Below, in pieces: positions 2,221 through 4,993 of a DNA stretch of 64,000 bases. The position numbers were made by a program, and so were the translations under genes. How positions within the stretch are numbered: position 1 is the stretch's first letter; each line of letters starts with the position of its first letter. The notes below the pieces were generated by a model. The model had not been told where the DNA came from, searched no databases, and saw only the letters and a list, made by a program, of their open reading frames with translations. The DNA comes from a virus. Lineage: Duplodnaviria; Heunggongvirae; Uroviricota; Caudoviricetes. The stretch covers positions 5,853 through 69,852 of the IMG/VR virus record IMGVR_UViG_2654587728_000014. One strand, 5' to 3'.

Positions 2221-2814
2221 ATTGGCTATATTCGTGTGTCAACAAATGACCAGAACACGGATTTACAACGCAATGCACTGAACTGCGCAGGATGTGAACT
2301 GATTTTTGAAGATAAAATCAGCGGAACGAAATCAGCCAGACCGGGATTGAAAAAACTGCTCAGAACGCTATCAGAAGGAGATACGCTGGTTGTCTGGAAG
2401 CTGGACAGACTGGGCAGAAGTATGAAACACCTGATCACGCTTATTGAGGAATTGCGGGAAAAAGGTGTTAATTTCCGTAGTCTGACGGACAGCATTGACA
2501 CATCAACACCCATGGGGCGTTTCTTTTTTCACGTCATGGGGGCTTTAGCCGAAATGGAACGTGAATTAATTGTAGAGCGTACACTGGCCGGGCTGGCAGC
2601 AGCACGCGCACAAGGACGCATTGGCGGACGTCGCCCGAAGTTGACAAAAGAACAACACGAGCAAATAGCGAGGCTGATTAAAAACGGTCATGACAGGAAA
2701 CAACTGGCGATCATTTACGACATCGGCATATCGACGATTTATCGTTATCACCCTGTAGGCGATATACAGGCTGAAGAAACAACCAGGCAGACTCAGGAAA
2801 ATAAAAACCGCTAA
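2215..2814 (+). CDS. gin: DNA invertase, serine recombinase (Gin/Hin/Pin/Cin family)
   Basis: 199 aa; MQIGYIRVSTNDQNTDLQRNAL, VVWKLDRLGRSMKHLI and MGRFFFHVMGALAEMERELIVERT match the Mu Gin sequence as I remember it, including the catalytic Ser region and C-terminal HTH. Confidence 0.9.
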   Translation: MQIGYIRVSTNDQNTDLQRNALNCAGCELIFEDKISGTKSARPGLKKLLRTLSEGDTLVVWKLDRLGRSMKHLITLIEELREKGVNFRSLTDSIDTSTPMGRFFFHVMGALAEMERELIVERTLAGLAAARAQGRIGGRRPKLTKEQHEQIARLIKNGHDRKQLAIIYDIGISTIYRYHPVGDIQAEETTRQTQENKNR

Positions 2815-2833
2815 TCTGACCATTAGCGGTTTT
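2804..2833. terminator. bidirectional intrinsic terminator hairpin between invertase and gpU
   Basis: AAAACCGCTAAT-CTGACC-ATTAGCGGTTTT perfect stem with A and T runs on both sides, overlapping the invertase stop. Confidence 0.45.
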
Positions 2834-2840
2834 GCGTTAA

Positions 2841-3335
2841 TCAAAACAGCCCTTTAACGGAGCTGGCCGCGCTGTTAAGGGATGATGTGACCTTATCTTT
2901 GAAGCCGGACAGCATATCACTGAACGATGAGGATTGCAGGCGCTCCCGCAAATCCTCATCACAGCGTTCAAGAGTCAGTGAAAATTCTATCTTTTTCGCC
3001 TTACCGTAGCGATCAAACTCGGAACGGGTCGTATTCGTTTCAGTCAGTACATACATGCCGTAAATCTGCCCGACACCATCAATCAGAGGCCAGGGGCGTC
3101 CTGTATATGCCTGCGTGGTCAGCAACGAAAGCGACACTTCGCCACCTGTAATTTCAGGATAAAGCACGCCGGAAAGCACGATGCGATCATCACCTGCGCC
3201 GATATACTGCCAGCTTGCTGAACGGTTAACGCGTTCATTTTTCACATGCCGCCAGCTTTTGTTTTGCTGTAACTGCTGATGCGGCAATGTGCGCAGCTCA
3301 AAAACAAACATGCCGTAGATCATCATCATGGCCAT
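2841..3335 (-). CDS. phage tail protein, P2 gpU-like
   Basis: 164 aa starting MAMMMIYGMFVFEL with GVLYPEITGG and WPLIDGVGQIYGMYV, matching the P2 gpU pattern as remembered. Confidence 0.75.
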   Translation of the reverse strand: MAMMMIYGMFVFELRTLPHQQLQQNKSWRHVKNERVNRSASWQYIGAGDDRIVLSGVLYPEITGGEVSLSLLTTQAYTGRPWPLIDGVGQIYGMYVLTETNTTRSEFDRYGKAKKIEFSLTLERCDEDLRERLQSSSFSDMLSGFKDKVTSSLNSAASSVKGLF

Positions 3336-3341
3336 GACTCC

Positions 3342-4757
3342 TCAATCTTTATCGTAAAAACTGCCACGCCCGGCACGGGCGCGCCGTTCCATTTCTGCCC
3401 TGACCATTTCGCCAATCAGTTTCGCCAGTTCGCGGGGATTCTGTGTAACAACGTTATGCAGATGAACATGAATTTCACCGCCAAATCCGGAGGCAACAGG
3501 CTCCCGGTTACGGGAAGTTGCAGGAACTGATGCCACTGGCGATCGTATAGCCTCCGCCACCGGGCGGGAGCTGGCCGCAACAACAGGGACCAGCGCCGGA
3601 GGCAGCGGAGCCGGAACCACGGGTGTGATAGTAATTGCGGGGGCAGGCTTACTGACCTGCGCAATCTTCCGCTCCTGCCACTCCCCACGAACAGCAAGTG
3701 CGCGGGGCAGGTTCTTAAAGACAATATCGCCGGGGCCAATGCGTTTTTTCGTCTCATCAACCAGCTTACCTGTGTTATCAGCAATTTTGCTGAGTCTGCG
3801 TAGCGTACCGGTATTGTTGTCTGTGAGCGGTTTGTTGTCTCTGGGTTTATCGCCTTTTTTGTCGTCGACCTTATCTGACGGGGCCGGGCCGGGAGTCCAT
3901 GGTTTCTGAACCATTTTCTTGAGAACCGGATCCCATTCCCACATTACAGGAGCCTTTGAAGCGTTCTCTATTTTCTTTCTCGCCCGTTCCGCTTCATCCG
4001 GAAGCACTCCGAGCTTTTCAAGTATCCACGCCAGTGAATCCATCAATGCTTTTGTTGGCGTCAGGACAAGCTCTATCGCTCCACCGAGTACCCTGCCGAA
4101 TACCTCGCCAGCACTGGTACATTTATCCAGCGTTTCCTTGCTGGACTCCATCGGTGACAGCAGCGATTTAAACCAGTTAAAGACCTGAATAATCCCATCG
4201 CGCACGACATCAAAAACTGGACCGAACCGTTCAAAGGTTTCGCGCAACGGAGCCAGCCGTTCCATAATCCCACTGAACACCCCTGCATAAAACGCCTTGA
4301 TGGGTTCCCAGTATTTCCAGATGAGAACCGCCGCAGCCACAAACGCAGCAGCAATCAATCCGACCGGGCTGAACAGCGCCCCGATAGCGCCCCCCAGTAA
4401 CGAAACGGAACCCGTCACCATTCCCCATAGTGCTGGCAGGAGCCTGACAGCATTCATTGATCCGGTCAGGAGGGAAAAGCCAAGACGCAGTTTTGCCAGC
4501 GGGCCAGCAAGCACACCAATAGCCAACGACAACGAGCCGACCGTTGCAGTCATCGCCAGCAATGCCCCACCTGCAATCAGTAGCTGGCGCGTCAGTGCCG
4601 GATGGGCCTGCGCCAGCGCCGTCACCTTTGATACCACCCGCGTGAGCCACTGCGTGACAGAACGCAGCGGACCGTCAATCAGATCTGCAATGCGGATGCG
4701 CAACCCTTCCCATGCACTGCCGAGTGATTTCAGATCGCCGTCAAGGTTGTTGGCCAT
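3342..4757 (-). CDS. tail tape-measure protein, C-terminal part only (5'-truncated, likely pseudogene)
   Basis: 471 aa with Gly/Ala-rich TM-like stretches and a C-terminal proline-rich region; about half the length of P2 gpT; frame stays open upstream only to ~4895 where unrelated sequence begins. Confidence 0.6.
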   Translation of the reverse strand: MANNLDGDLKSLGSAWEGLRIRIADLIDGPLRSVTQWLTRVVSKVTALAQAHPALTRQLLIAGGALLAMTATVGSLSLAIGVLAGPLAKLRLGFSLLTGSMNAVRLLPALWGMVTGSVSLLGGAIGALFSPVGLIAAAFVAAAVLIWKYWEPIKAFYAGVFSGIMERLAPLRETFERFGPVFDVVRDGIIQVFNWFKSLLSPMESSKETLDKCTSAGEVFGRVLGGAIELVLTPTKALMDSLAWILEKLGVLPDEAERARKKIENASKAPVMWEWDPVLKKMVQKPWTPGPAPSDKVDDKKGDKPRDNKPLTDNNTGTLRRLSKIADNTGKLVDETKKRIGPGDIVFKNLPRALAVRGEWQERKIAQVSKPAPAITITPVVPAPLPPALVPVVAASSRPVAEAIRSPVASVPATSRNREPVASGFGGEIHVHLHNVVTQNPRELAKLIGEMVRAEMERRARAGRGSFYDKD

Positions 4758-4993
4758 AACCTTTGCTGTGCGTTCAGCCTCACCGCGCGCGCCTTCAAGT
4801 TCTTTTCTCAGTTTGGGTAAGGAGCCGTCACTGATTAGACTTGAGATAAATGACAGGGAATAAGTGAGATATTTATGGGAAGAACTGGGTCAAAATGGGA
4901 AGAGACTAGGAGGAATATGCAATAACCTTACAGTATGTGAAAATCAGACCGGCCCGAAAAAAAACAGAACTCGCGCCAGCCTGATTGCAGATA

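Follow-up and report, generated by a model that had tools for sequence, protein, structure and literature searches.

A Mu-like prophage nested in a P88-type prophage and probable site-specific inversion between the two

Invertible fibre genes are known from several elements. Gin with its gix sites (the G segment of Mu), Cin with cix (P1), Pin with pix (e14) and Min of plasmid p15B are serine invertases with a Resolvase and an HTH_7 domain, as are the two invertases considered here. Their sites are 26 bp long with a 2-bp core at the boundary between the constant and the variable part of a fibre gene, and more than two sites give several permutations, as at the present locus. Fibre cassettes that set the host range have long been known to be exchanged among Mu-, P1-, P2- and e14-type elements. 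Trans-action of an invertase between elements has also been described, for PinQ on e14 (PMC12529663) and for EC958 Phi4 (PMC4134206). Here, we describe a stretch of 64,000 nucleotides from a tailed phage record (IMG/VR IMGVR_UViG_2654587728_000014, positions 5,853 to 69,852; the whole stretch is called the window), in which DNA of a Mu-like transposable prophage lies within a prophage of the P88 type (Xuanwuvirus, P2-related). At a probability of roughly four in five, we consider that the Mu-like prophage is nested in the tape-measure gene T of the P88-type prophage and that this insertion was followed by one or more invertase-mediated inversions between the two prophages, with all segments kept.

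An earlier note on this DNA had viewed the region in terms of missing genes, replacement and deletion. This framing is now largely explained away. The source contig was found through the 471-amino-acid product of T: it is JHRJ01000008.1 of NCBI assembly GCA_001267345.1, identical to the window across the 14,757 shared bases, with contig position 6284 corresponding to window position 1. It is a draft contig from whole-genome shotgun sequencing, and the gene and junction order given below is read from this draft assembly. Logan assemblies of SRR21136863 served as an independent data set for the junctions.

Native gene order and a tape-measure gene in two halves

The P88-type serine DNA invertase (199 amino acids; 2215-2814, + strand; Pfam Resolvase, E = 1.5e-51, plus HTH_7; 99.7% identical to the gene of FAM21845) and the tail protein gpU of the same prophage (2841-3335, - strand; Pfam Phage_P2_GpU, E = 5.5e-39) are encoded convergently, their stop codons lying 26 nt apart. 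Between them is a hairpin resembling a bidirectional terminator (2804-2833), with a 12-bp stem flanked by A and T runs (dG -14.7 kcal/mol, z = -3.7). The adjacency of the two genes and the shared hairpin had been pointed out before and are both found here. Is this adjacency a break in synteny, as had been supposed? The annotated order in FAM21845 is V W J I H, a tail-fibre assembly (TFA) gene (+), a second TFA gene (-), a cassette (-), a recombinase (+), U-T(935 amino acids)-E-E'-FII-FI (-) and D-ogr (+), and the window is colinear from 146 to 4831 with P2-related prophages of many E. coli genomes. The same adjacency of invertase, U and tape-measure gene is found in phage P88, in Xuanwuvirus P884B11, in phages 520873, 503458 and 500465-2, and in Citrobacter phage Shae_phiSM; in the P88 record the whole order is visible, including D after FI. 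P88, obtained by induction of E. coli K88, is a plaque-forming phage (PMC5285337). Since the invertase-gpU order is present in plaque-forming P88 and in Xuanwuvirus-type relatives, it is functional and typical of the genus. The native order of P88-type phages is H, fibre cassettes, invertase (+), U-T-E-E'-FII-FI (-) and D (+). The supposed break is thus an order that related phages share natively, and D and ogr have not been replaced by an invertase cassette: the invertase beside U, with D beyond FI, is the conserved arrangement.

The canonical P2 order (H-G-FI-FII-E-T-U-D-ogr on one strand) is found neither in the window nor in FAM21845 or P88. Compared with it, the contig of the window and both of these references have the FI-U block on the opposite strand, U adjoining the invertase and D beyond FI. 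Assignment to the P88 type is supported by Pfam matches to GpU, Tail_P2_I, Baseplate_J, GPW_gp25, Phage_base_V, P2_Phage_GpR, Phage_GPA and Phage_GPD and to sheath and tube proteins, and both gene order and nucleotide similarity agree with Xuanwuvirus; T is interrupted, yet both halves are present.

Within the window, T is represented by an open reading frame (ORF) at 3342-4757 (-) of 471 codons from its ATG, in line with the ~470 C-terminal codons counted earlier. The frame is open upstream to 4831, and Pfam gives no match. It belongs to the 3' half of the tape-measure gene, T' (3342-4831, -; 496 of ~937 codons), which is cut by the insertion. Leftward from window position 1, JHRJ01000008.1 carries the start of a fibre cassette (X), a 190-amino-acid resolvase gene (gin) and a Mu-type end (...GCATCA); further left, past this end, follow the 5' half of T ('T), as a 456-amino-acid PhageMin_Tail ORF, and genes for GpE, E', tube, sheath and a 369-amino-acid GPD. 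The 5' half of T, E, FII, FI, D, gin and the second Mu end therefore lie 1-6 kb to the left of window position 1 on one contig, so that FI, FII, E and D, once listed as missing tail genes, are absent from the window only. Nor has the 5' part of T been lost. T' (1490 nt) and 'T (1330 nt) minus a 6-bp duplication add up to 2814 nt. The uninterrupted gene of P88 and FAM21845 has 2808 nt, and because the summed halves match the length of the intact gene, no deletion has taken place: T is cleanly split by the insertion.

The duplicated target, CGTCAC, stands next to both Mu ends, at 4826-4831 and beside the gin-proximal end ~990 nt left of the window (positions 15746-15751 of L003, a stretch of the same contig), and occurs once, at the same point, in the intact T of FAM21845. 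Homology to Mu-like prophages, which occupy many different locations in other E. coli genomes, starts at 4828-4832 and continues at 99.2-100% identity, the terminal TG being at 4832; mor, the activator of late transcription (4994-5383, -; Pfam Mor, E = 1.3e-43), lies 160 nt from this terminus. The earlier proposal of a Mu-like insertion into T is thus upheld, and the Logan assembly of SRR21136863 contains the T'/Mu junction with 0 mismatches. The termini were fixed from three insertions, in which TGATTAG is preceded by C, C and A, and GCATCA is followed by C, G and T. The related prophage of MLI121 represents an independent insertion, into cbtA, with the 6-bp duplication GTTCAC. Mu itself duplicates 5 bp of its target, and so both simple insertions, here and in MLI121, differ from it in their 6 bp. 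A target duplication was also sought around the NR3838 prophage and none was found; this prophage is rearranged, one end abutting a truncated rimK.

Fibre cassettes and their crossover sites

Fibre cassettes lie on both sides of the Mu body. At the left edge of the window is segment a, consisting of the 3' part of cassette X (fibre C-terminal part; 1-196, +), which begins ~270 nt outside the window, beside the Mu-type gin, of the assembly genes TFA1 (196-789, +) and TFA2 (761-1204, -), both matching Pfam Caudo_TAP, and of the promoterless fibre cassette H'v2 (1206-1708, -). It is followed by segment d, cassette S'v_c (1709-2145, -), with 0/437 nt mismatches to the cassette beside gin in the MLI121 Mu-like prophage. 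Segment b (36.9 kb) runs from the invertase spacer, via the invertase gene, U, T' and the Mu body, to Sc, which is the constant part of the Mu-type fibre gene S. This gene (38035-39489, +) is completed by cassette Sv_a, which together with the assembly gene TFA_b (39496-40110, -; 100% identical to the MLI121 Mu-like copy) and cassette S'v_b makes up segment c. Beyond it an in-frame chimeric fibre gene (40110-41759, -) fuses Hc, the constant part of the P88-type fibre (40628-41759), to S'v_b (40110-40627), and a matching TFA gene is directly downstream.

Repeat analysis and a motif scan revealed 26-bp sites of the form TTC(Y)CC(Y)AAACC AA N12. There are five such crossover sites, with a shared half-site and a central AA, at the 5' ends of the promoterless fibre cassettes, each joining a cassette side to an 'other' side, which is the constant part of a fibre gene, the spacer ahead of an invertase or the 3' end of the following cassette. 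Site A (TTCCCCCAAACC AA CGTTTTCGTTTT; 2134-2159, +) joins d to the spacer upstream of the P88-type invertase and is reproduced in Logan assembly L004; site B (TTCTCCTAAACC AA CGTTTCTATGCC; 1695-1720, +) joins H'v2 to the 3' end of d and is reproduced in Logan SRR21136863 (L029). Site C (TTCTCCTAAACC AA GGTAATCAAGAA; 40614-40639, +) is the S'v_b|Hc junction, site D (39011-39036, -) is the Sv_a|Sc junction in inverted orientation, as in NR3838, and site X, ~260 nt left of the window, joins cassette X to the gin spacer. In the Mu-like prophage of NR3838 the junctions are Sv_a|Sc, S'v_b|d-3' and d|gin-spacer, and in the P88-type prophage of FAM21845 they are Hv1|Hc and H'v2|invertase-spacer. Two to four junctions of the source genome, depending on the history assumed, pair a flank from the P88 side with one from the Mu side, the exchange falling within 7 nt around the AA.

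Where does the Mu-type DNA end on its far side? The fibre gene had been thought to run straight into P2 G at 39470-39510. There is no break at this point: the window is colinear from 36000 to 40627 with the NR3838 Mu-like prophage, in which the order is fibre S (+), TFA (-), cassette (-), cassette (-), recombinase (+) and end, and in MLI121 the same cassette block is flipped, giving a 555-amino-acid fibre followed by TFA. The gene at 39496-40110 is thus a member of the cassette block and not a P2-type G. The real break is at 40627, inside site C. Homology to the P88 type (constant part of the fibre, I and J; 98.1% to FAM21845) begins at 40612 and identity to MLI121 (99.94% over 39020-40633) ends at 40633, so that the alignments overlap at 40612-40633; from the last cassette-specific to the first Hc-specific base there are 7 nt, with the AA core inside. 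The chimeric fibre protein was found in no assembly besides the source, and among 5426 complete E. coli genomes nothing closer to junction C than 90.4% turned up. Such an absence fits a recent, strain-specific event, but it is no independent confirmation of the junction.

Several features place both invertases and their sites in the Gin/Cin/Pin/Hin family. Both are small serine recombinases with an N-terminal resolvase domain and a C-terminal HTH; the 26-bp sites are imperfectly palindromic, have a 2-bp core and lie at the boundaries of invertible DNA; and the invertible segment occurs in both orientations with exchange at the core, as seen by comparing MLI121 with NR3838 and the window, and in EC958 reads. 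MLI121 and NR3838 are exactly one flip apart, with exchange at these cores. Different junctions share only ~14-20 identical bases there. The five sites are reverse complements of the 26-bp sites of EC958 Phi2 (PMC4134206, Table 3), and PacBio reads of EC958 contain prophage fibre segments in both orientations, with ~50% mixed at such loci (PMC4134206). A search for the classic gix core AAACCNNGGTTT gave matches at chance level only; the real sites carry AAACC AA (C/G)GT.

Reconstruction of the inversions and competing explanations

From Hc to gin, the observed order is -c -b -d -a, each segment being present once. Starting from the nested state a b c d, a breadth-first search restricted to inversions between oppositely oriented sites arrives at this order; 64 states are reachable in all. 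Segment b is inverted relative to the side of the P88 baseplate and Hc and also relative to the side of gin, the Mu end and 'T, and consequently the two halves of T are on opposite strands and the Mu termini are direct, not inverted. Since b is inverted in every possible history, the two prophages must have recombined with each other, site to site, at least once. With the Mu termini in the same direction, their normal pairing should be prevented.

The proposed course of events is as follows. The host prophage is of the P88 type, with the native order of that type. A Mu-like phage of ~37 kb, of the PhiKM / EC958-Phi2 type, transposed into T, duplicating CGTCAC. Invertases of the Gin/Cin/Pin family would then have exchanged strands between interchangeable sites of the two phages, 36-41 kb apart. 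In the favoured version, one inversion of ~40.5 kb would have taken place between the Hc site and the S'v_b|d site, and another of 2.4 kb between the P88-invertase-spacer site and the gin-spacer site. Inter-prophage inversions would number at least one and probably two. Gene order, the sequences at the junctions, the target duplication and the identities to relatives are observed directly; that an invertase was the agent of the exchanges, how many inversions there were and in which order, and that they are reversible, we infer.

Formally, one history with two inversions and three with a single inversion are possible. A single inter-prophage inversion would suffice if one of the phages natively carried a different cassette set, for example if a P88-type Hc|c|d|invertase and a Mu-like Sc|a|gin had been followed by a 37-kb inversion of d and b; enumeration allows this and two other one-step variants. 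Prophages of the kinds needed do exist: five other genomes have a Mu-like prophage with segment a (99.0% identical, 19/1984 nt differing) flanked by Sc and gin (gin end 100%), and a is present too in the P88-type prophages FAM21845 and L011; in the P88-type prophage of strain 1434, c and d lie beside the invertase. This explanation has to be taken seriously, but we regard it as unlikely. In MLI121, segment c (1576 nt), segment d (437 nt) and the gin end (717 nt) adjoin one another as a single block; the source genome carries them at three separate places, without a mismatch to MLI121 over 2730 nt. The early region of the Mu-like prophage is likewise 100% identical to MLI121. The copy of a, by contrast, differs from the Mu-borne ones at the positions just given, and the d of strain 1434 differs by 2 nt. 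The two-inversion history is favoured because of these identities to MLI121, whereas a differs from its Mu-borne copies.

Two other origins of cassettes were considered and rejected. Cassette X as a hybrid formed by deletion between the Mu cassette d and a P88 cassette was ruled out by the tabulated flanks of the sites, and a strictly P88-derived segment a by Mu-like prophages, in five genomes, that encode exactly the H'v2 protein. When a synthetic S'v_b|gin-spacer junction was used to see whether Mu-like relatives lack d, it gave 100% matches; this junction is also a normal flip state of a three-site phage.

Could the inversion have been made by something other than an invertase? The 5' regions of the cassettes are 88-96% identical to one another and present in both orientations, and RecA-dependent homologous recombination between conserved parts of ~210 bp might be imagined. 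The non-cassette partner, however, changes right after the AA core, only the half-site is shared and exchange falls within 7 nt; homology on one side cannot support a reciprocal homologous exchange at such a point, and the natural flip between MLI121 and NR3838 uses the same core as its exchange point. The precision of the exchange together with one-sided homology speaks for an invertase rather than homologous recombination, and we consider the latter highly improbable. Mu-type intramolecular replicative transposition is hardly credible at all. It was one option of the earlier note, which had suggested a later deletion or inversion, either transposition-associated or site-specific, and it does occur in the same phage family, since NR3838 has two inverted copies with a split rimK and no target duplication. 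Here, there is a single Mu-like copy, the 6-bp duplication is intact on the two halves of T, and the breakpoints are at fibre crossover sites and not at Mu termini. Because the breakpoints are crossover sites and the target duplication is intact, the rearrangement was not associated with transposition; of the earlier suggestion, site-specific inversion stands, and deletion and transposition do not.

There is also the possibility that the contig path exists in no single molecule, the true genome being simply nested or a mixture of many flip states. The source is a draft contig, Logan contigs of the second read set break near these sites, the chimeric fibre protein is recorded in one assembly only, and loci of this kind in EC958 showed the mixed orientations mentioned above. 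Such an artefact is nevertheless improbable: the junctions share just ~14-20 nt of identity and hence ordinary reads span them; every junction in a contig needs read support, so that junctions of P88 flanks with Mu flanks existed in the culture; a second read set and assembler give sites A and B and the T'/Mu junction again without a mismatch; and the contig holds each segment once, in a state that allowed inversions can reach. Some points do weigh against nesting followed by inter-prophage inversion. Junction C and the X|gin junction are seen solely in the NCBI draft assembly, and with mixed flip states in the culture an assembler could have chained junctions from different cells. Since blocks a, c and d are each in circulation among P88-type and Mu-like phages alike, sequence alone decides neither which junctions are recombinant nor whether one or two inversions occurred. 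Finally, these invertases would have to act across ~40 kb.

A wider and more tentative idea, which we rather doubt at present, is that the co-resident prophages could form one reversible multi-site inversion network with two invertases and 64 arrangements, swapping receptor-binding cassettes between a P2-type and a Mu-type phage and toggling the Mu-like prophage, which would be competent for transposition with its ends inverted and locked with its ends direct. If this were true, recurrent events in such networks would offer the families a site-specific way of sharing fibre cassettes in their well-known mosaic fashion and, where prophages lie far apart, might invert large parts of the chromosome.

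Relatives of the two prophages and comparison with known systems

The body of the Mu-like prophage (4832-39022, +), with the mor-proximal terminus (TGATTAGAC...) at one end and the constant part of fibre gene S at the other, is 99.3-100% identical to PhiKM and the MLI121 prophage; the element as a whole, ~37 kb, is completely covered by Escherichia phage PhiKM at 99.3-99.4% identity. Its assignment is supported by Pfam matches to rve (DDE transposase), the AAA_22 ATPase partner, Gam, GemA and Mor, and by TG...CA termini, unrelated insertion sites and a short direct target duplication. Its gin, left of the window (190 amino acids, Resolvase plus HTH_7), is 100% identical to that of the NR3838 Mu-like prophage. 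The early operon (4832-16500), running from the repressor side at ~13.4 kb through transposase, B and gam to mor, faces the nearby terminus, and the late genes are transcribed in the opposite direction, unlike the layout of Mu. The constant part of the Mu-type fibre contains 168-bp tandem repeats (38269-38853; Phage_fiber_2), the copy number of which varies by strain, the fibres ranging from 426 to 555 amino acids. NR3838 (NZ_AP040232.1, ~4.50-4.62 Mb) carries two copies of one Mu-like prophage in opposite orientation without target duplication, one flanked by the 5' part of rimK and aroA and the other with the 3' part of rimK beside its gin end, an arrangement that is the signature of inversion by intramolecular replicative transposition. 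In GCA_022111715.1 (DAGGVT010000063.1) a related Mu-like gin end lies ~1.6 kb from lambdoid tail genes (Phage_tail_U, TAC, Phage_tail_T), which may be another landing of a Mu-like phage inside a resident prophage. A 95-kb E. coli plasmid record (NZ_CP074704.1) matches at 288-2082 with 95.8% identity from TFA1 through gin, ending exactly at the Mu-type terminus.

The remainder of the P88-type prophage (41756-64000, -) comprises I, J, W, V, S, R, lysis genes, L-O, P/Q, parM-like genes, gpA and the integrase gene. Between Q and gpA, at 54776-56051, are genes for proteins resembling ParM and StbB of plasmid partition, as in FAM21845. The D gene of FAM21845 (L001 28109-28953) is annotated with 264 amino acids and has a small pseudogene fragment upstream, while D of the window's contig and of P88 has 366-369 amino acids. 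Strain 1434 (NZ_CP184019.1, 3.85-3.875 Mb) carries a complete P88-type prophage, in which an IS66 element interrupts one cassette and the d copy is identical to the allele of the NR3838 Mu-like prophage. This strain shows very recent sharing of cassettes between the P88-type and Mu-like families.

For annotation, the apparent synteny breaks resolve into an order normal for the genus, a clean transposon-type insertion and a conservative inversion, and not gene loss. The earlier expectation of defective or chimeric prophages holds in so far as the P2-type prophage is defective and one fibre gene is chimeric, and the Mu-like prophage would be disabled, perhaps reversibly, by the separation and reorientation of its transposition ends. 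For phage biology, the locus is a concrete case of apparent site recombination between two prophages, yielding an in-frame P2-type/Mu-type chimeric fibre with a matching assembly gene, and it suggests a simple mechanism by which host-range cassettes may be exchanged among Mu-, P1-, P2- and e14-type elements. A full-text literature search found no description of invertase-mediated recombination between two prophages, which is weak evidence for novelty.

Compared with its closest relatives, the P88-type part shares 89-91% identity with P88 and 98-99.7% with FAM21845 over invertase-U-T; gene order around the site is the same in both, and the parM-like and gpA genes are also shared with these phages. 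Neither of the two has the features that set the present prophage apart, a 37-kb insertion in T and an invertase-U-T' block turned round with respect to the baseplate genes. The Mu-like part is 99.3-100% identical to PhiKM, MLI121, NR3838 and EC958 Phi2 over the early region, the 24.5-kb middle, cassettes c and d and gin, with the same TGAT...ATCA termini and crossover sites; unlike in those relatives, its right end (d, gin and terminus) is detached from the body and the termini are in direct orientation. It resembles bacteriophage Mu in its DDE transposase and MuB-like ATPase, Gam, GemA, Mor, TG...CA ends, many insertion sites and short duplication, and differs from it in duplicating 6 bp in two independent insertions and in having an early operon that reads toward the nearby terminus. 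The components are thus all known: P88-type phages, PhiKM/Phi2-type phages, Gin/Cin/Pin switching, the multi-site Min system and the trans-action of invertases. Recombination in cis over ~40 kb, between sites that belong to separate prophages, appears unusual: in the known Gin, Cin, Pin and Min systems 2-4 kb are inverted within one element, whereas here the sites that recombined apparently come from prophages of two unrelated families, and ~37-41 kb are inverted.

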